A DNA stretch of 64,000 bases from Promethearchaeota archaeon (GCA_030599585.1 JAUVNS010000002.1:160001-224000), one strand, 5' to 3'. Positions 29,294 through 40,502 are shown, counted from the stretch's first letter. Numbers and translations: made by a program. The notes: generated from the sequence alone by a model not told the origin.

Positions 29294-30688
29294 TTATTTT
29301 CGGTAATTTGGATGGAATTTCTTTAATATTTCGGGATCGATTCTAGCGAGTTCTGACTCGGGTAATATTGATAGGAGATCCCAACCGATGTTAAGAGTAG
29401 TCTCGATATCACGGTTTTCATAATACCCTTGGTTGATGAATTCCTTCTCGAAACGATCCATAAATTTGAGATACAGTTTGTCTGTATCTGTCAACGCCTT
29501 TTCTCCCGAGACCATAGCCGTTCCTTGGATTATTTTTCCCTCAGCATAGGCATAATAAATTTGGTCTGACAATTGCTTGTGATCCTCCCTTGTTTTATTC
29601 AAGCCAATGCCCTTATCCATCAATCTGGATAAACATGGTAAAGGATCTATGGGGGGATAGATTCCCCTTTTGAACATATTTCGGTTCAAGATAATCTGGC
29701 CTTCTGTAATATAATTTGTTAGATCTGAGATCGGGTGCGTTACATCATCGTCAGGCATCGTCAAAATTGGGATCATAGTTATTGATCCTTTCTTTCCTCG
29801 GATTATACCTGCTCTCTCATATAACATAGCCAAGTCCGTGTACATATAACCTGGATACCCGCGACGTCCTGGAATCTCCAAGCGAGAAGCGGAAATTTCA
29901 CGTAGTGCTTCGCAATAATTGGTCATGTCAACCAAAATGACGAGTACATGGTGGTCATGCTGGTATGCAAGGTATTCGGCAGTGGTTAATGCAAACCTCG
30001 GAGTGAGCAGTCTCTCGATGGCAGGGTCTTCAGCGAGATTGATGAACATAACAACTCTTCCAATCGCCCCCATTTTCAAAAAATCATCTCTAAATAACAC
30101 CATTTCATCAGAAGTTATACCCATCGCGGCAAACACGATCGTGAATGGCTCATCTGACCCTGGAACTCTTGTTTGACTCACAATTTGGGAAGCAAGTCGT
30201 TTATGCGGCATCCCCGACCCAGAAAGAAGTGGGAGCTTTTGTCCCAGCAATAAAGTGTTTAAACCATCGATCACGGAAATCCCAGTTTGGATAAACTTTG
30301 TGGGGAATGTGCGTGAATACGGATTGATCGTTGCGGCGTGCACATTAAGATAATCCTCTGGAATTATATCTGGACCATTATCTATTGGTTTGCCGACTCC
30401 TGAAAATATACGACCAAGCATATCAGTAGAAACTGCTAACTTTATATTATCACCCGTAAAACGAATTCCTGTAGATCCAACGCTCAATCCAGATGTTTTC
30501 TCGAATACTTGAATAACCGTGAACTTATCACTCACGTCGATGACCTGACCAGTTTTTTCCTCACCGTCTCGGGTCAAAATTTTTACAACCTCACCAAAAC
30601 CGATCCCAACCACGGATTCACATATTAATAGTGAACCCTCAATTTCATTGACTGTAAAAAAATTTATATTTTTGTTGGATTTAGTCAT
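29294..30688 (-). CDS. atpB: A/V-type ATPase subunit B
   Basis: [40 protein letters not shown]; start MTKSN at 30688 overlaps the atpA stop. Confidence 0.95.
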
Positions 30689-32471
30689 TATTATTCTCCT
30701 CCTTTGCTTCTTGAATAAGGATCTCAAAATCCTTATCCATATCGGCTAAAAGCTTCGAATTATATGCATCGAATTCATTCATTGGAATGATTTTCATCCG
30801 ACTTATCCCTACTTTAACAGGAAGGGCTAATATTTTTTGTAATGGTACTTCCAATTCTATCGCAGCTCTGGTTTTTTCGTTAAACTTGAGTAAGGTTCTA
30901 AGCATTTTATAGGTTTTTTGAATGGGACAATATACATCAACTGGATGGTAGGCACTCTGCAACAGGAAATTTTCTTTCAACATCTTTGCTACTTCAAAAA
31001 CACCTCGTTGTTTATCACCTAAAATGTCGGCTCCAATAAGTGCCACGATTTCTTTGAGTTCTTCCTCCTCTCGCAACAATGCTCTCGCATCTCCACACAA
31101 TCTTTGCCAATCCCTATCAACACGTAAGAACCAATCTTCGAGAAAAGACATGTATTCGGAATAGCTCATGAACCAGTTGATAGCAGGATAATGCCTGCGA
31201 TGAGCAAGATTGAAATCAAGTGCCCAAAATACTTTGGCTAATCGGAGCGTGTTTCTTGTTACTGGCTCGGAGAAATCGCCTCCAGGTGGAGAAATTGCCG
31301 ATAATACGGTGATTGAGCCTTCTCTTTCATCCGAACCGAGTGTTTTTACGCTTCCCGCACGCGAATAATATTCAGCTAAGCGAGATGAAAGATAAGCGGG
31401 ATACCCTTCCTCACCGGGCATCTCTTCTAACCGCCCAGAAATTTCACGAAGCGCTTCGGCCCACCGCGATGTGGAATCTGCCATTATTGCAACATTGTAC
31501 CCCATATCCCTGTAATATTCAGCGATCGTAATACCGCTATAGATACTTGCTTCTCTTGCAAGGATTGGCATATTTGACGTGTTTGCTATTAAGACTGATC
31601 TACTCAAAAGCGGATGATCTGATCCAGTTTTTTTGAGATGACTGAATCTTTCTAGAACCTCTGCCATCTCGTTCCCGCGTTCACCACAACCTATATACAC
31701 AATAATATCTGCATCGATCCACACCGCAATTGTTTGTAACAAGACTGTTTTTCCTGTTCCAAATCCACCAGTAACAGCTGTGATCCCTCCCTTAGCAACT
31801 GGGAAGAAAGAATCGATGATACGCTGACCAGTTAAAAGTGGTGTGTCTATATGGAGCATTTCCTTGTATGGACGTGCCTGCCGAACAGGCCATGTTTGCA
31901 TCAAGAATACTTCCTTAATTCCATTATGCGTCTTGATCTCAGCAATTGGTTCAGTGACAGTGAAATCTCCCTCGGAATTAATGGTTTCCACGACTCCGAC
32001 GACTTCTGGGGGAACCATGATTTTATTTTCAATGGAGGGTGTTTCTTGTACTACACCAAGGATATCACCGCTGGTAACCTTGGCACCTTTCGAAATTATT
32101 GGTTTAAATTGCCATTTTTTTTTGCGATCGATTGCAGGAACCTCGATGCCCTTTTCAATCCATGGACCAATTTTTTTTGCAATCAAAGGGAGCGGTCGTT
32201 GAATTCCATCGAGAATTTGTCCCATAAGCCCGGGACCAAGCTCCACAGACAGTAGATTCCCAGTGCCGATAACTTTTCCACCGAGTTTTATCCCTTCCGT
32301 TTCTTCGTAGGCTTGGATAATTCCCGTGTTCCCTGAGACGCGGATTACTTCTCCAATGATGCCAGCCTCCCCTATTTTAACAAGTTCAAACATTTTTACA
32401 TTAGGCATACCCTTCGCCGTGACAAATGAACCGGCAATACGGGATATCGTACCAATTGTTGTTTCTGCCAA
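30681..32471 (-). CDS. atpA: A/V-type ATPase catalytic subunit A
   Basis: P-loop [40 protein letters not shown]; TTG at 32471 (MAETTIG) avoids overlap with atpF. Confidence 0.95.
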
Positions 32472-32487
32472 GATATAATTCCCTTTT

Positions 32488-32796
32488 TTATTCTGATTTG
32501 AGTTCAATACCTGTTTTTCTTCTAATAAGCTCCGTGATAGTATCTGTAATAGGTTGGGAGGAGTCTCCAAGAGCTGGAATTGAAATGATTATAGGGAACT
32601 CATGTTCTTCTATGATTTCATTAATAAGTGCCCGATTTTTGTTGGCTATGTAATCCGTCGTGATTAGAATCGTATACTCTGGTTTTTCAATGAGTTCTTG
32701 CAGATGTTGCTTCGCCTCCTCGGGATTATTAGCCACGAATACATGCTCCAATCCGCCTAACTTGAAGAAACTTACCGTATCAACATCGGCAATCAA
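32488..32796 (-). CDS. atpF: A/V-type ATPase subunit F
   Basis: IADVDTVSFFKLGG, PIIISIP, IRRKTGIEL; true start uncertain (see findings). Confidence 0.88.
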   Translation of the reverse strand: MIADVDTVSFFKLGGLEHVFVANNPEEAKQHLQELIEKPEYTILITTDYIANKNRALINEIIEEHEFPIIISIPALGDSSQPITDTITELIRRKTGIELKSE

Positions 32797-32835
32797 TGCT
32801 ATTTTTATAAGACATCACGGTTTTTTTTTAATTAT

Positions 32836-33462
32836 TCATGTAAATAATGTCTGTGCTATTTTAAATCGGATCTCGCTTTCAGAATTATTCAACATGCCTT
32901 CAAATGTGTTATTCAAAACAATTTTACCATCAGTCGTTTGGATTATCACTCCGCCAATTGCATCTATTTTTTTTGCAGATTTCGTGATATTGGTCTTTTT
33001 CCCCGTTTTCTCGCCTATTATCTCTGCCAATTTATCCAAATCCAGCGGAAGAGTTGAATCCCTTCCATTCAAGATCACTTCCAGGTCTGTTGCACCCAGG
33101 ATAATGCCTCCTTCCACGATGAGGTTTTCGAGGACATGAAAGTATTTATCCGTATTTATATGCGTGCGTAGCTCGTCCTTTACTTGGTTTAGAACGTTTT
33201 CGATCAATTCGTGTTTTTTCTCGAGAATCAACCATTTTGCTTTACTTTCGGCTGAAATTGTGTCGCGTAACTTGATTAGCTCGAAGTCGTTTTGTGCTTT
33301 TTTATCTATTGAAATAATAATCTCCCTCGCCCTTTCCCTACCTTTTTTTCGTTGCTCTTCTATGGTGCTTTGAACCGTTATTTTCACATCTTGGATGATT
33401 TTTTCAGCTGTTTCATGTGCCTCGGACAATAAGGCTTCTATTAACGCATCAGCCGATGTCAT
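32836..33462 (-). CDS. atpE: A/V-type ATPase subunit E
   Basis: N-terminal coiled coil, IGGVII...DGKIVLNNTFE. Confidence 0.9.
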   Translation of the reverse strand: MTSADALIEALLSEAHETAEKIIQDVKITVQSTIEEQRKKGRERAREIIISIDKKAQNDFELIKLRDTISAESKAKWLILEKKHELIENVLNQVKDELRTHINTDKYFHVLENLIVEGGIILGATDLEVILNGRDSTLPLDLDKLAEIIGEKTGKKTNITKSAKKIDAIGGVIIQTTDGKIVLNNTFEGMLNNSESEIRFKIAQTLFT

Positions 33463-34027: not shown

Positions 34028-35881
34028 TTAATGAACGGTTACCGTCTTACTAAGATTTAATGGTTTATCGGGATCTAGATCATGAGCTAAGGCAGCATAA
34101 TAGGCTAATAATTGTAAGGCAGGCATGAAAGTAATTGGGCTGAAAAGATTATGATATTTATCAGCGGGTTGAGGAATTCGAATTGTTATATCGCTTAATT
34201 TTGTTATTTTTTCATCGCTTTCCACAACGACGGAAATAATTCTTCCACCTCGAGATTTGAACTCCATTACGTTCCCAACTAACCTATTATATGTCTCGTC
34301 TGGAGGAGCTATAAATATTATAGGAAATCCTTCTCTTACCAAAGAGATTGGTCCATGTTTAGCAGAAGCTGCAGAATAACCTTCGATAAACCGACAAGCA
34401 ACTTCCTTCAATTTTAATCCTCCTTCTTTGGCAGTTGCGATTGAAATACCTCGTGCTAAAAAGAAATAATTCATATTTTTTTCTAAATGGTTTACGATAT
34501 ATTTAATTAAATCAACATTTTTTTCAAGGAATTGTTCAATGATATTAGGAATTCCAGTTAAAGCATCGTAGTATTTTATTATTTCTTCATCAGATATTTT
34601 TTTTCTAATTTTAGCGATTGAAACTGCTATCAAAGCAAGAGCAAGAACTTGCGTGCTATACGTTTTTGTTGCTGCAACACCAATCTCAGGTCCCGCATTT
34701 GTTACGATCACGTGATCGGAATACCTAGTAATGGATGAGCCTACTACATTAGTAATCGTTAGAATTTTAACACCTTTTGTTTTTTTTGCCCACCTAATCG
34801 CTTCAATCGTATCAATTGTTTCGCCTGATTGTGAGATTGCGATAATTACGGAATTTTCTTGTAAACTACCATTTAATTGGGTCTCAAATTCAGAGCATTC
34901 GATATCTTGAATGTTTTTATTAAGAAATCTAGAAATTATAAATTTGCCTGCTAGTGCTGCGTGATAAGATGTACCCGCTGCTGTGATATATATGTTATTT
35001 GCTGATATTAAAGCGTTTGCAAACTTACTTAAAATTTGCTCTGAAATTTTCATGGTAAGCCTTAGCGCATTTGGTTCTTCGAAAATTTCTTTTAGCATAA
35101 AATGCTCATAACCCCCCTTTTCTGCCGCATCAATATTCCATTCGATGGTTTGAATTTCTTTTTTAATCAATTCATTATTGTTTTTAAGATCAAAAAATTC
35201 TACTTCTCCCGCCTTCAAAACAGCAAGTTCGTTATCTTCCATTATATAACATTTTTTTGTATAAGGTAAAAAAGCAGGAATATCTGAAGAGCAATAAGTT
35301 GTTTTTCCTTCTTCTATTCCAATTATTAAAGGAGATTCTTTTCGAGCGGCTATAATTAAATCAGGATAATTAACCTGACAAACTGCAATTGCATATGCTC
35401 CCTTGCATTTTTTTAACGCATTTATAGTTGCGTCCTTAAGACTATTACCTTTTTTCATAAAATCTTCAATTAAATGGGGAATTACTTCAGAATCAGTCTC
35501 AGATTTAAATATATGTCCTAGAGAAGTAAGTTCATCTCGTAATTCTATAAAATTCTCTATTATTCCATTATGGACAACTGCAATCTCGCTTAAACAATCT
35601 AGATGTGGGTGGCTATTTTGTTTAGTAGGTGCTCCATGAGTAGCCCATCTTGTATGGGCTAATGCAAGTTTTGAATCCCTCGGAAATTCATCTAATTTGA
35701 CTCTTTTATGGATATCATCAATTTTTCCAGCTTCTTTTTTAATAAATAGTTTTGAATTATAAAGTGAAACAATACCACATGAATCATAACCACGGTATTC
35801 TAAACGTTTTATTCCTTCAAAAACCACTTTTCCTACTGAGATTTCTTGATTGTTTGTAACTATTCCAAAAATACCACACAT
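34028..35881 (-). CDS. glmS: Glutamine-fructose-6-phosphate aminotransferase
   Basis: MCGIFG, LEYRGYDS, HTRWATHG, SQSGET, GPEIGVAATKT, NLSKTVT. Confidence 0.96.
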   Translation of the reverse strand: MCGIFGIVTNNQEISVGKVVFEGIKRLEYRGYDSCGIVSLYNSKLFIKKEAGKIDDIHKRVKLDEFPRDSKLALAHTRWATHGAPTKQNSHPHLDCLSEIAVVHNGIIENFIELRDELTSLGHIFKSETDSEVIPHLIEDFMKKGNSLKDATINALKKCKGAYAIAVCQVNYPDLIIAARKESPLIIGIEEGKTTYCSSDIPAFLPYTKKCYIMEDNELAVLKAGEVEFFDLKNNNELIKKEIQTIEWNIDAAEKGGYEHFMLKEIFEEPNALRLTMKISEQILSKFANALISANNIYITAAGTSYHAALAGKFIISRFLNKNIQDIECSEFETQLNGSLQENSVIIAISQSGETIDTIEAIRWAKKTKGVKILTITNVVGSSITRYSDHVIVTNAGPEIGVAATKTYSTQVLALALIAVSIAKIRKKISDEEIIKYYDALTGIPNIIEQFLEKNVDLIKYIVNHLEKNMNYFFLARGISIATAKEGGLKLKEVACRFIEGYSAASAKHGPISLVREGFPIIFIAPPDETYNRLVGNVMEFKSRGGRIISVVVESDEKITKLSDITIRIPQPADKYHNLFSPITFMPALQLLAYYAALAHDLDPDKPLNLSKTVTVH

Positions 35882-36018
35882 TAAAAAAAGAAAGGAATAA
35901 AAAATTTAAATAGGTTTTTTTTATGGATTATATAAATCAACTGTAAAATGTGATAATATCTATATTTAATTCTTGAAATTATAAATATATTAGATTAGGA
36001 TTTTAAATTTAATATTTT

Positions 36019-39000
36019 TTATTGATTGAAATTTAACCGGTTAAAAGTATTAGCAACCCAAAATCGATAAGGGGAAGCCCATATAGCAAATAACTTTTCA
36101 GATTTTTTTAGATGTTTTAAAGCCTTCTTTAATTTTCCTTCTGCAAGTGCTTGAATACCTCTTACATAAGTCTTTGCTGATCTTACATGCAGATTATTGA
36201 TATTCTGAGAATAGTTTATTGCATCGTTACATAATTTAATTGCTTCATAATATTCTTTTCTACGTATACAAATCTCAGCCAATTCTCCATAGGAAGTAAT
36301 GGCAGATGCTTTTTCTCCAGCTAGAATGAATTCTTCTAAAATTTCTTTAAATATTTGTTTCAATTCTCCGGAATTAATATCTGGATTAATCAATGAAAGC
36401 TTAGCATTAGCATTTTTTATATCGCGTTCAGCATGTGCATTTTCTGCCATTTTTAACCACATTTCCCAGGATTCTTTTGCAAGAGAGAAATTATTTGTTT
36501 GATAGCCAATGCTACCTCGAATCTTCAACATACCAATTATCTCAGATTTATTTGAAGGAATTAAATCACTGTTCTTTAAATTACGATTCTCATCTACTCC
36601 TTGTTCTGCAGATTTATATAGTTCAAATGAATCATCATAAAGTTTAAGCGCTTTTTTAAAATTTCCTAAACCATGTTCAGCTATACCTTTAGTGATCAAA
36701 CTTTTTATTAAGATATTAGTATCATTTATGGATCGAGCAATTTTTTCAGCTTTTTCGATGTATAGAAAGAGATCATCCAGGTTGCCCATATATCGTTCAG
36801 TTGTACCGAGATGCCATAAAATATTCGCTTCTAGCTTTTTATTTTTCTTAATAAGAACTAATTCTAAAGCTTTCTTACATAGTTTTTCTGATTTTTTATA
36901 TTGTCCTCGATGCAATAATGTTCGAGCAAAACTGTATAAATAAAGCGCTTTTTTATCAATTAAATTCAAGCTTTCTGCAGATTTTATACCTATAGCTAAA
37001 AATTTTTCTATATGAGTCCAATAACATTGGTTCTCTATTTCTTCAAGCGTGTCATCGACTAGACCAATAACATTTTCATGTTTATTGATGTTAAATAACC
37101 ATTTACCTATTGGTTCTATCTCTTCAATATGTTTTGCAAGATCTCCTTTATTGTCTTTACTTACATTTATTAAACATTCAGCAGCTTGCTGTACTATGAG
37201 AGACTCCTCTTCCTTTTCATTATCATTAAATCGGCTGGGTAATGAATGCATAAGATTATAAGGTAACTCAGAAATCTTACGAGGATTAATTTTTTGCTTT
37301 CCAAAATAACGAGCTAAAATTAAATGATTCCTTTTTCTAACTTTCTTTGTTAAATAATATTTAATTATTGCTTTCTGAAATTGACTGTGAAAAAAATTGA
37401 GCGTATATGTTCCATCTGCTCTACGATTAGTTAAGTATGGTTCAATATCATGATAAAATCGAGACCATAATACGATAGGTAGTTTTATTTTCCCGTTATA
37501 AGTGATTAATTTATGTCTAGATTGAATATCAAAATCTTTTAATACATCCGGATCATCCGAAAGTATGTCAATAATTTCATCTTCTGTAAGTCCATTTTTA
37601 GCAACAGCCAAATAACTTAAGCTGTTGGAGACAAATACTTGACCATGGTTTGTATCTAAAGATAGCCATTTAAACAAATCTATAATAATGCTTGGAATAC
37701 TAGTACTAATTTTTGTTTTTTCAGGTTCAGTATAAGATTTCCAATGTCGTGATTTTTCAAATGCTAGTTTAAGATATAAAGGTAACCCACAATTATAGAA
37801 TTTACTAATAATTTCTTTATTTTGATGAGTTTGAAGGGTTCTATTAGCACCTTTTAACCATAAATTTAGTAATTCTTGACCTTCAACCTGAGACATATAT
37901 TTTAATTCAATGAAATTTATATCTGGTAATCTCATTTTAAGTAAATCAAGGTGTTTACCATGTGTAGTTGATACGATTATTCGAACATAATTAGGCAAAG
38001 TAAAAGGAAGCCAAGTAAGATTTTGCCCTTCATCAAAGCTTGAAATCTGATCTAAAGCGTCTAAAATGATGATTAAAGGTTGATGCTCCCTAGCTATAGA
38101 TAGGATATTCTTGAATTCAAAATTAAGTTCTTTATAAATAAAGGGAACATTGGACTCCTCCTTACCATACACCCTATATATTTGATGAACAACATTTTCT
38201 AATAAATCCCGACAATTTGAGGAATTAGGTGTTATACCAAAAAATCTTATTATAATATTAGCGCTCGAGTTTATTTCACTGATTATTTTAGCAATTTGAG
38301 CCATCAACGCTGATTTTCCTGAACCGGAATCACCATAAACCACTAGGGGATGATCGTTCTCATTTAAAACATAGTCTTCAATTCTTGTTAATATCTCTTT
38401 TCTTCCAGTAAAGTTTTCCCGGCGTTCTTTTGCAAATCTTTTGTGCTCTTCAACTTCTCTAGCAAGAGAGTCTATTTCTTTGAATTTTGCAATTTCCTTT
38501 AATATTATTTCTGATAGTACATCATACACATTATCGCAGAATAAATTAATATCATAATTTCCAATTCCTTTTTTGTCCCAAACTACAGGATACTCCTTGA
38601 TATTATTTGGGATTTTCTTTCTTAATTTGTCTTTCAGTTTCGTTAATAATTCTTGTGTTTTTTGATTAATATTACCTTTTTCATCTAAATCAACAAACCC
38701 TCCCATTTTTGGGTCTAAGGGGGTCTCTATATTCCGGAAGAAACCAAAAACATGATCATAATTATCTTCAATTTTCAATGCACCATTAAAAATTTCTTGT
38801 TCCGTAGCTGAGGACTCATATTTAATGCGTTCCTCTTCTTTTAAATTTATTTTTTTAATAGCATTAAGAAGGATATTTCGAAGTTTACGCTCAACTAGCG
38901 CCCATTCTTCGTCAGTTTCATAAATTTCTTCCCTTGGTTGGAGAATATAAACAGAGGGCACAGAATTTTTATCTAGACGATACCATTTCTTAAGAATATC

Positions 39001-39372
39001 ATGTTCGTATTTTTGGTGGTTATTAATTTTATTTGTATTTTTTAAAATAGATATAAAAGATTCCTCAGGAATCTTATATGGCAAAGGTCTCCAACCATAT
39101 CGATTTCCTAATAAAATTAAGAAATTTGGTCGTGGGTTGACATTTTGACATCGTTTAATCTCTTCTATACAAATTTCTAACGCTTTATGATCAAGAGCAG
39201 CTTCTTTACGAACCCCCCATCGAAGATCAATGGCTTGAAAGCGAGCTCCGTGTAGTAGACAAAGTTCACGTAACTTAGGAAAAACTTGTTCGTGCAATTT
39301 ATTACGTTCATTTATCATATCTTCAAAAGTTGAACTTACAAAAATTCGGAATGTTCTATTAATATTCGTCAT
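36019..39372 (-). CDS. STAND NTPase: DUF4062 + NACHT + TPR (NWD/TEP1-like)
   Basis: IFVSSTF.DM..ER, IDLRWGV, LLGNRYG, Walker A GDSGSGKS, Walker B IILDALD, LPLYLKL, C-terminal TPR-like repeats. Confidence 0.88.
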   Translation of the reverse strand: MTNINRTFRIFVSSTFEDMINERNKLHEQVFPKLRELCLLHGARFQAIDLRWGVRKEAALDHKALEICIEEIKRCQNVNPRPNFLILLGNRYGWRPLPYKIPEESFISILKNTNKINNHQKYEHDILKKWYRLDKNSVPSVYILQPREEIYETDEEWALVERKLRNILLNAIKKINLKEEERIKYESSATEQEIFNGALKIEDNYDHVFGFFRNIETPLDPKMGGFVDLDEKGNINQKTQELLTKLKDKLRKKIPNNIKEYPVVWDKKGIGNYDINLFCDNVYDVLSEIILKEIAKFKEIDSLAREVEEHKRFAKERRENFTGRKEILTRIEDYVLNENDHPLVVYGDSGSGKSALMAQIAKIISEINSSANIIIRFFGITPNSSNCRDLLENVVHQIYRVYGKEESNVPFIYKELNFEFKNILSIAREHQPLIIILDALDQISSFDEGQNLTWLPFTLPNYVRIIVSTTHGKHLDLLKMRLPDINFIELKYMSQVEGQELLNLWLKGANRTLQTHQNKEIISKFYNCGLPLYLKLAFEKSRHWKSYTEPEKTKISTSIPSIIIDLFKWLSLDTNHGQVFVSNSLSYLAVAKNGLTEDEIIDILSDDPDVLKDFDIQSRHKLITYNGKIKLPIVLWSRFYHDIEPYLTNRRADGTYTLNFFHSQFQKAIIKYYLTKKVRKRNHLILARYFGKQKINPRKISELPYNLMHSLPSRFNDNEKEEESLIVQQAAECLINVSKDNKGDLAKHIEEIEPIGKWLFNINKHENVIGLVDDTLEEIENQCYWTHIEKFLAIGIKSAESLNLIDKKALYLYSFARTLLHRGQYKKSEKLCKKALELVLIKKNKKLEANILWHLGTTERYMGNLDDLFLYIEKAEKIARSINDTNILIKSLITKGIAEHGLGNFKKALKLYDDSFELYKSAEQGVDENRNLKNSDLIPSNKSEIIGMLKIRGSIGYQTNNFSLAKESWEMWLKMAENAHAERDIKNANAKLSLINPDINSGELKQIFKEILEEFILAGEKASAITSYGELAEICIRRKEYYEAIKLCNDAINYSQNINNLHVRSAKTYVRGIQALAEGKLKKALKHLKKSEKLFAIWASPYRFWVANTFNRLNFNQ

Positions 39373-39539
39373 TTAAAGCACGAAATTTCTAAAATTTAAT
39401 TCAGCTATCTGATTAGTTGGTATTAAATGAGACATATTTATATAAATTTTAATAAAAATAAGGTTTGTAAAGTCCCTATAATTAAATTTTTATTAAAGAG
39501 AACTTTTTTTAGTATAAAATATATTTAAGAGAATTAATA

Positions 39540-40502
39540 ATGGCAATTAAAGTAATAGTAACAGATAATTTTGAAAAGTTAAGTGAGGTTGCGGCAGAAA
39601 TCGTAAAAGAACAAATCATTCAAGGATTACAAGATAAGAGTGAATATGTTTTAGGGCTTGCAACAGGAAATTCACCAACAGGTCTTTATAAAGAACTTGC
39701 TAAAATGGCAAACGCTAAAAAATTCGACAGCAGCAAGGTTCGCAGTTTTAATCTCGATGAATATATTGGTCTTCCGGGAGAAAATGCTCAACAACGCACG
39801 ATACATCCACAAAGTTATTGTTACTTTATGATTAAAGAATTCTTTGGGCTTCTTAGCGATAAATTCATTGAAACAACTTTGCCTTACGCTTGTTTGATTG
39901 ATCAAAAAAAACTTATTGAAGAATTATCATCCCATACTGAAGATTGGACCGAATTAGGAACTGATTCCGGAAAATCAATCAATATTAAGGATAACGCTTC
40001 TTCTGAATACTTAAATTGGATTCGTAAAACAGTTTTAGATGGATACGCCCAAAAAATTGAAAAATCGGGTGGTATTGATTTACAGATAATTGGAGTTGGT
40101 GGACGTGGTCATGTGGCATTCCACGAATCAGGAATTCCCTTTGAAGGAAGTAAAGTCATGTTAATAAAACTTGATAAAAATACAGTAACTAATGCAGTAA
40201 TCGATGGACAATTTAGCTCAGAAAATGAATGCCCTCGTTATGCTATCAGTATGGGTGCTGAGTTAGTATATAAGTCGAAAACTGTGTTGTTATTAGCTAA
40301 TGGAGAACGAAAAACTGAATCTGTTACTGAATCATTACTAAATGCACCTACTCCAGATGTTCCTATATCTTATGGTCAGAGATATTCCGAAAAAGCGGGC
40401 AATTTAATTTATGTTTTGGATAAGATTGCTGGCCGAGAACTTCTTGCTAACAGAAAAAAGCTTGAACAAAAAGGAATAGAAATTGAAATTAGAAACGGTT
40501 AA
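39540..40502 (+). CDS. nagB: Glucosamine-6-phosphate deaminase (divergent, with insertion)
   Basis: LGLATGNSP, FNLDEYIGL, GGIDLQIIGVG, GHVAFHE, AISMG. Confidence 0.85.
   Translation: MAIKVIVTDNFEKLSEVAAEIVKEQIIQGLQDKSEYVLGLATGNSPTGLYKELAKMANAKKFDSSKVRSFNLDEYIGLPGENAQQRTIHPQSYCYFMIKEFFGLLSDKFIETTLPYACLIDQKKLIEELSSHTEDWTELGTDSGKSINIKDNASSEYLNWIRKTVLDGYAQKIEKSGGIDLQIIGVGGRGHVAFHESGIPFEGSKVMLIKLDKNTVTNAVIDGQFSSENECPRYAISMGAELVYKSKTVLLLANGERKTESVTESLLNAPTPDVPISYGQRYSEKAGNLIYVLDKIAGRELLANRKKLEQKGIEIEIRNG

Follow-up and report, generated by a model that had tools for sequence, protein, structure and literature searches.

The stretch of DNA analysed here (the window: 64,000 nucleotides, nt, of a Promethearchaeota archaeon, GCA_030599585.1 JAUVNS010000002.1:160001-224000) carries on its minus strand, at 36019-39372, a gene whose product, P0001, joins in one chain a TIR-like effector domain (DUF4062, or NIR), a NACHT nucleotide-binding module, an NWD1-type winged helix (WH) and a C-terminal solenoid of TPRs. 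P0001 is probably an NLR-like receptor of the STAND type, i.e., a single-chain protein that would be gated by a ligand and would deplete nicotinamide adenine dinucleotide (NAD+) in defence against viruses or mobile elements. The gene reached its present position as a one-gene insertion in the spacer between glmS and nagB, and it is accessory, patchy and horizontally moving, P0001 being an ordinary accessory member of a large and mostly bacterial family.

The gene is real and intact, with a single open reading frame (ORF) of 1117 residues and no internal stop in the ORF listing, and it had been correctly described in an earlier note made on the sequence of this DNA, all the motifs of which were found: RIFVSSTFED (residues 9-18), DLRWGV (49-54), WYRLDKNSVPSVYILQP (130-146) and ELPY (701-704), the latter being the last motif of the conserved core. 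The effector-NTPase-sensor layout proposed in that note, with TPRs rather than WD40 repeats at the C-terminus, is borne out by Pfam matches above the gathering cut-off for DUF4062 (PF13271; residues 9-103; 44.7 vs 24.7 bits, E 1.6e-11), NACHT (342-507; 34.3 vs 26.7 bits), NPHP3_N (forming with NACHT a P-loop module at residues 321-507, also matched by AAA_16), HTH_NWD1 (an NWD1-like winged helix; 573-676; 32.2 vs 27 bits) and TPR_12 (63.7 vs 30.1 bits), with TPR_12 and TPR_MalT repeats running from about residue 810 to 1100, the TPRs being seen in VIA-align too. The same tripartite effector-STAND-sensor chain is found in the AlphaFold2 (AF2) models, both of the full-length protein (predicted local distance difference test, pLDDT, 87.7; predicted template modelling score, pTM, 0.79) and of residues 1-720 (pLDDT 86.4, pTM 0.83). 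Foldseek ranks the TIR-NLR RPP1, Avs3, NRC1/2, Apaf-1 and NOD2 at the top (probability 1.0), which, together with the HTH_NWD1 match, identifies in P0001 a nucleotide-binding domain-helical-winged helix module like that of Apaf-1, NOD2 and the NLRs. Its helical domain and NWD1-type winged helix occupy residues ~515-691 (37300-37830, minus strand), as delimited by the Pfam match and the secondary structure of the model. The genome of the host contains one copy of this gene and one DUF4062 domain in total.

The effector domain extends over residues ~6-296 (38485-39357, minus strand) and is recognized by PF13271, by its best match in the PDB and by the beta-alpha topology of the models, in which strands and helices alternate, as would suit a TIR-like fold; the Foldseek alignment with RPP1 covers 680 columns. 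Three preprints from 2026 describe DUF4062 as a TIR-like NADase, for which the name NIR has been introduced (10.64898/2026.09.04.749371). NAD+ depletion by NIR has been reported for Vulcan, Vesta and PsAvs2, the last one being a STAND protein whose sensor is made of TPRs (10.64898/2026.09.04.749371). NADase activity is established for Swarozyc and for human TEP1, in which it goes up with concentration (10.64898/2026.05.01.722283), and one of the three preprints presents Evangelion as another DUF4062 defence family that depletes NAD+. A term search in the DUF4062 preprints of the Rousset and Tagliabracci laboratories found no mention of Asgard archaea in either. The catalytic glutamate of NIR proteins corresponds to E1008 in TEP1, E108 in PsAvs2 and E97 in KpSwz. 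The best PDB sequence match of P0001 is the NADase domain of human TEP1 (11gz_A), with an E value of 4.5e-14 for the single sequence and of 8e-23 for a 41-sequence family profile, and in the profile alignment TEP1 E1008 falls on E193 of P0001 (TEP1 residues are numbered as chain position + 893, which was checked on R908, R954 and R976, all of them Arg). E193, the predicted catalytic Glu, closes the motif S188-A-T-E-Q-E193 (38794-38811, minus strand), aligned to SVTEME in TEP1, and S188, T190 and E193 are invariant in the 41 sequences and in both family alignments. R91, conserved across the 41 prokaryotic members, is the counterpart of TEP1 R976, whose substitution lowers the activity (10.64898/2026.05.01.722283). 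The domain also harbours an insertion of ~85 residues (~100-186; 38815-39075, minus strand) that holds the WY.LD.N..P..Y.LQP motif, and that is present in the "long" family and in the amphioxus (Branchiostoma) protein P0413, and absent from TEP1 and from the "short" prokaryotic TPR subfamily, which skip positions ~105-181 of the hidden Markov model.

The NACHT nucleotide-binding domain (residues ~321-510; 37843-38412, minus strand), delimited by the NACHT, NPHP3_N and AAA_16 matches and by Foldseek, retains both of its NTPase motifs, which, added to the Pfam match, places P0001 in the NACHT clade. Walker A (GxxGxGK[ST]) reads G347-D-S-G-S-G-K353-S354 (38311-38334, minus strand), with G347, G350, G352 and K353 invariant in the family alignments, and Walker B (hhhhDxxD) reads L433-IIILDALDQ442 (38047-38076, minus strand), with D438, D441 and Q442 equally invariant.

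The sensor is a TPR solenoid of ~20 helices (residues ~721-1112; 36037-37212, minus strand), which according to VIA-align resembles the TPR domains of NprR, Rap, MalT domain III and LGN (Z 22-26), the first three of them being peptide- or ligand-binding sensors. The earlier note had suggested that the sensor was exchanged after ELPY, and this is supported, because the alignments of WD40-type relatives to P0001 end at residues 706-710, just past that motif, while the TPR-type proteins P0002, P0004, P0006 and the Helarchaeota P0029 continue colinear with P0001 up to ~1113. This TPR part is common only to the subclade formed by those proteins. Across the family, C-termini consist of WD40 repeats, TPRs or none (in proteins of ~780 residues), and the swapping among these three states has occurred repeatedly in the relatives, which is a repertoire-like trait.

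The arrival of the gene can be read from its surroundings. The host, whose genome is metagenome-assembled, is an Asgard archaeon (Lokiarchaeota/Promethearchaeota), since the adjacent glmS belongs to a 90%-identity cluster named Candidatus Lokiarchaeota / Promethearchaeota. In nine congeneric genomes (glmS 90-95% identical), nagB and glmS lie side by side in divergent orientation, separated by a spacer that lacks the P0001 gene. The spacer measures 139-145 bp in eight of these genomes and only 52 bp in the ninth, compared with 3,658 bp in the window. The ends of the relatives' spacers align to 35853-35900/35912 and 39464-39569, and the difference is therefore a one-gene insertion of ~3.55 kb (35913-39463, boundaries +/- ~12 nt), which comprises the P0001 gene with ~105 bp downstream and ~90 bp upstream and replaces ~35-45 nt of the ancestral spacer. 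There is no integrase or transposase inside the insert, whose sole other ORF is antisense and encodes 83 residues, and the Rfam and tRNA scans of the window were empty of Rfam elements and tRNAs, so no tRNA-linked integration site is found in it. An imperfect inverted repeat of 23 nt (pair I5; 78% complementary, 18/23 matches) lies at the insert ends, with its left arm at 35915-35937 and its right arm at 39436-39458, and 3 of 500 shuffles of the end regions gave as many matches. This is only suggestive: the repeat could be a remnant of the insertion mechanism or due to chance in AT-rich DNA, and for that reason the insert is not called a transposon. The right arm overlaps a TATA-like TTTATATAAATA (39435-39446 on the coding strand, 63-74 nt upstream of the start codon), a candidate promoter element; the scan for sigma-70 promoters and terminators stayed at chance level, its models being bacterial and not relevant to an archaeon. 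The composition does not point to a distant donor, because GC and GC3 (GC content at third codon positions) of the gene do not differ from those of its flanks (GC3 0.203, vs 0.202 in glmS and 0.212 in nagB), which leaves a donor of similar composition or an amelioration of the gene as explanations.

The accessory status that the earlier note attributed to the gene is supported by these nine empty spacers and by its distribution. Only 5 of 400 Asgard genomes across the phylum, including its own, have a homologue at E<=1e-20, none of them matching in the TPR part; among 40 relatives searched, three have a homologue, with 30-41% identity. The family itself is large: an exhaustive HMMER search with residues 1-720 retrieved 13,817 cluster representatives at E<=0.001 and 3,825 at E<=1e-30, the nearest relative of P0001 being the metagenomic P0002 (62-63% identity) and all others staying at or below ~50%. 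Named sources include Altiarchaeales, Helarchaeota, Hodarchaeota, Methanobacterium and Methanoperedens, as well as Proteobacteria, Desulfobacteraceae, Anaerolineae and Armatimonadota, and the ESM Atlas yielded only bacterial DUF4062/NPHP3_N clusters. A single-sequence scan of prokaryotic genome contigs found no relatives, while an alignment-based scan of one genome per prokaryotic species succeeded in confirming 474 loci in many bacterial and a few archaeal phyla; the 79 loci examined come mostly from Chloroflexota, Acidobacteriota, Thermodesulfobacteriota, Planctomycetota and Bacteroidales, with some methanogens and Halobacteriota.

The genes around those 79 loci, whose ORFs were clustered locally before scanning representatives for domains, show that the family is frequently found in company. 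Tandem paralogues, a further repertoire-like trait, are frequent: two or three DUF4062-NACHT paralogues, some of them very divergent, lie within 8 kb at L010, L012, L013, L015 and L020, and the same clustering is seen at L033, L038, L051, L053 and L064. P0249 (a JGI metagenome protein of 2313 residues) scores 1262 bits against the 720-residue query, about twice its neighbours in the list, which suggests that its chain has the DUF4062-NACHT module twice, in tandem. Stand-alone WD40 propeller genes flank repeat-less cores of ~780 residues (37 ORFs in 24 loci), forming a split NLR architecture exemplified by L007:5309-7642 and L007:10248-12629 and by 22 further loci among L007-L085. In addition, proteins with a C-terminal RyR domain adjoin family members (e.g., L007:2601-5309, L017:5312-7981, L034:10341-12146 and L008:1805-4321). 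They are forms of ~900 residues in 18 loci, TrkA_N-RyR proteins in nine and RelA_SpoT-SLOG-RyR proteins in three, and this suggests that some family members signal to nucleotide-sensing partners. RyR and WD40 partner genes are absent at the P0001 locus, and the genome itself has no RyR domain.

How would such a receptor work? At rest, the C-terminal TPR solenoid and a NACHT module bound to adenosine diphosphate (ADP) would hold the protein monomeric. A ligand, probably a viral protein or peptide, would bind in the groove of the TPR solenoid, and this binding would lead to nucleotide exchange in NACHT and then to oligomerisation, which would cluster the N-terminal NIR domains; the clustering would activate the NADase and NAD+ would collapse. 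The NADase activity, the trigger, the oligomerisation and the defence phenotype are proposed here by analogy with the published relatives, and the immune-receptor reading is a reasonable one.

Nevertheless, several observations weigh against it. The human long-type relatives NWD1 and NWD2, as well as NPHP3, were inactive as NADases in vitro as full-length proteins (10.64898/2026.05.01.722283). TEP1 R908 is not conserved, its place being occupied by E17 in P0001. No match of P0001 to Avs or bNACHT was obtained in PADLOC-DB 2.0.0, which includes models of both, and the only matches in it were to a generic TPR model (E 8e-5) and to mad8 (E 1.7e-3). The locus is no defence island (the neighbours being glmS, nagB, glmM, the A-type ATPase and an oxidase dependent on flavin adenine dinucleotide, FAD), no homologue was found on catalogued phages, the one plasmid match is limited to DUF4062 and, to our knowledge, there is no known virus of this host and no known trigger. 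One rival reading would make P0001 a STAND switch outside immunity, with TPRs that sense an endogenous cue (stress, a peptide or a metabolite) and with NAD+ cleavage or ADP-ribose regulating dormancy, programmed cell death or cell-cell interactions. Many non-defence STAND clades are indeed interspersed with defence clades (PMC13581612), the TPR domain resembles the quorum-peptide receptors NprR and Rap and the metabolite sensor MalT-III, and the RyR, SLOG and TrkA_N nucleotide-sensor proteins beside many bacterial homologues suggest signalling and not simply NAD+ depletion; the position outside any defence island fits such a role too. However, this explanation is unlikely, in that housekeeping signalling fits poorly with a gene present in 1 of ~40 genomes of the genus and in 5 of 400 from Asgard archaea, the own genome lacks the RyR-domain partner, and NIR genes are enriched near defence genes (20% vs 3.9%; 10.64898/2026.09.04.749371). 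A different objection concerns the effector, which might be catalytically silent and act as a homotypic scaffold that recruits a partner, a role that has been proposed for animal TIRs and possibly holds for NWD1/NWD2. The inactivity of the human proteins mentioned above is in line with it, and so are the NWD-type NIR insertion of P0001 and its E17, but the conservation of S188, T190, E193 and R91 over 41 prokaryotic members argues that the chemistry is retained, the locus holds no conserved partner gene and all the prokaryotic NIR proteins tested in the three preprints deplete or hydrolyse NAD+, which makes a silent NIR rather improbable. As for a regulator of the hexosamine (glmS-nagB-glmM) cluster, its only argument is the position between glmS and nagB, and synteny leads to its rejection as scarcely credible: the cluster is intact in the nine congeners that lack the gene, with its spacer of 52-145 bp, and none of the examined loci of relatives has a glmS-nagB neighbourhood.

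The other alternative to be weighed is an evolutionary one. The earlier note had seen in P0001 a likeness to the NWD/TEP1 proteins and had proposed a relevance to the origin of eukaryotic NACHT proteins. The likeness is well founded: besides the 11gz_A match, residues 2-709 are colinear with the NWD-like P0413 of Branchiostoma (31% identity, E 1e-113), including the NIR insertion. The relevance to origins is not supported. Trees of the NIR-NACHT-WH core were built with FastTree (97 rows) and with IQ-TREE under LG+C20 (63 rows) from Asgard, other archaeal, bacterial and eukaryotic rows (TEP1s, one amphioxus NWD-like protein, and TPR and Ank forms), and their results agree. A search for longer, TEP1-type proteins had returned chiefly giant prokaryotic forms and a single TROVE protein, and the eukaryotic sequences came from a later search seeded with the latter. 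P0001 pairs with P0002 (support 100), then with the Helarchaeota P0029 (96) and then with P0004/P0006 (99), and this TPR subclade sits inside a small group with Hodarchaeota, Altiarchaeales, Methanoperedens and one Thermodesulfobacteriota row (95). In both trees the phylogenetic check on ancestry thus gives a position within a bacteria-dominated clade, the small group being nested in successive clades of that kind (94-96), with other Asgard rows elsewhere. A single Asgard clade is rejected by the approximately unbiased (AU) test, the constraint costing 229 log-likelihood units (p 2e-8; five Asgard rows, after post hoc exclusion of the row from genome G010, whose inclusion would only worsen the constraint). 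The eukaryotes are split: the amphioxus P0413 branches outside the 43 prokaryotic "long-NIR" rows, as the sister of them all (99), whereas the TEP1s cluster with another set of rows and the eukaryotic TPR forms with the "short-NIR" prokaryotic TPR subfamily (99). The similarity of the amphioxus core hardly varies among the prokaryotic long-type members, bacterial ones included (31-35% identity), and P0001 is in rank 39 of 96. A vertical descent of P0001 or of the Asgard TPR subclade from an Asgard source of the eukaryotic NWD1/NWD2/TEP1-type NACHTs may draw on the Asgard host, on the 31% identity over 709 residues with the amphioxus protein and its shared NIR insertion, and on a hint that some eukaryotic NACHTs and Asgard NLRs have a common ancestry (Leao et al. 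2024, PMC11291487), but it is very improbable in view of this polyphyly and nesting, and of an insertion missing from nine congeners in a family reaching 5 of 400 Asgard genomes. It is only unsupported and not formally rejected, because forcing the amphioxus row into the P0001 subclade costs 5.9 units of lnL (AU p 0.41), in a test with a single, long-branched eukaryote. In the same way, there is very little likelihood that the TPR subclade (P0001, P0002, P0029 and P0004/P0006) comprises the closest living prokaryotic kin of animal NWD1/NWD2, with an Asgard-like and not a bacterial donor of the long-NIR module to eukaryotes; apart from that AU test, all the evidence speaks against it. In short, the idea of P0001 as a special ancestor of animal NWD1/TEP1 is not supported.

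Some further observations were made on the proteins in these trees. P0413 (1642 residues), named "TEP1-like" at NCBI, scores up to 436 bits with prokaryotic long-NIR proteins and at most 107 bits with TEP1s, which leaves it as a typical NWD-type protein or as one acquired later. A fragment from the LCGC14 marine-sediment metagenome, that of the Loki's Castle core, belongs to the cluster of P0004. The genome G010, of the same genus as the host, encodes another DUF4062-NACHT-TPR protein (L004:532-3750, plus strand; 1072 residues), 30% identical to P0001, which in both trees branches beside the eukaryotic TEP1 clade (SH-like approximate likelihood ratio test, SH-aLRT, 92 in IQ-TREE) and apart from the other Asgard copies; the branches are all long, and this placement may be due to long-branch attraction.

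Regarding the rest of the locus, the flanking gene annotation agrees with the earlier note in that the gene stands alone between glmS (34028-35881, minus strand; NCBIfam TIGR01135, 643 bits) and a nagB-like glucosamine-6-phosphate deaminase gene (39540-40502, plus strand; Pfam Glucosamine_iso, with NCBIfam nagB below the cut-off), both of them outside the element. The nagB-like gene adjoins glmS in the relatives too, and its product (320 residues) matches the deaminase models in two stretches, ~4-103 and 166-302, by which it appears to carry an insertion of ~60 residues. Beyond these flanks lie the archaeal GlmM gene and the A-type ATPase operon, and the FAD oxidase is also among the neighbours. 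The A-type ATPase genes (29294-33462) are richer in GC than their neighbours (GC 0.39-0.42, GC3 0.37-0.41), glmS, nagB, glmM and the NLR gene showing GC3 values of 0.20-0.27, and this excess could reflect either the codon bias of high expression or a foreign origin.

If the proposed mechanism is true, P0001 would be an archaeal (Asgard) example of NLR-type immunity based on NAD+ depletion. Its effector domain is the one active in human TEP1, and, being intact, it is a handy prokaryotic model for the NWD-type core together with the NIR insertion, which is missing in TEP1; its gene is, besides, a clean natural case of a defence-type insertion of one gene for which the empty site is known from sister genomes. 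A bearing on eukaryogenesis is not supported, because most of the family is bacterial, its Asgard members are few and polyphyletic and the link to eukaryotes at the family level has already been published (10.1101/2022.07.19.500537; 10.64898/2026.09.04.749371; 10.64898/2026.05.01.722283).

Among the known systems, PsAvs2 from Pseudomonas chlororaphis (10.64898/2026.09.04.749371) shares with P0001 an N-terminal NIR with its catalytic Glu, a STAND NTPase and a TPR-type sensor in one chain, and presumably also the logic that leads from the ligand to the oligomer and to NAD+ depletion. However, PsAvs2 is a STAND protein of the Avs2 type with a terminase sensor, whereas in P0001 the NACHT is followed by an NWD1-type winged helix, NIR contains the ~85-residue insertion and the TPR is unrelated; P0001 also matches no Avs family model in PADLOC-DB 2.0.0. 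The NWD1/NWD2-like proteins (Branchiostoma P0413) have the colinear NIR-NACHT-WH core and the NIR insertion, and human TEP1, a member of the same DUF4062-NACHT-NWD1-type WH architecture, has the catalytic Glu and the NADase domain that best matches P0001 in the PDB, although TEP1 is devoid of the NIR insertion; both carry WD40 propellers, unlike P0001, an archaeal protein with a TPR solenoid and no TROVE/vWA region, which is not specifically related to either of them in the trees. The bNACHT proteins of Kibby et al., whose clade 16 holds TEP1 (10.1101/2022.07.19.500537), resemble P0001 in having NACHT between an effector at the N-terminus and a sensor at the C-terminus, and in their patchy, horizontal spread, but those tested use other effectors and probably belong to other clades, and P0001 matches no bNACHT model in PADLOC. 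Swarozyc, Vulcan, Vesta and Evangelion have the same effector domain and catalytic Glu, but no STAND NTPase, their activation depending on AUX/stalk elements, HEAT repeats or a partner phosphatase. Finally, Asgard NLRs as such have already been published among the defence systems of these archaea (Leao et al. 2024, PMC11291487), and they are, like P0001, single-protein NACHT receptors encoded by Asgard archaea; that survey was based on DefenseFinder models and describes no DUF4062 effectors, whereas the effector of P0001 is a DUF4062 domain.

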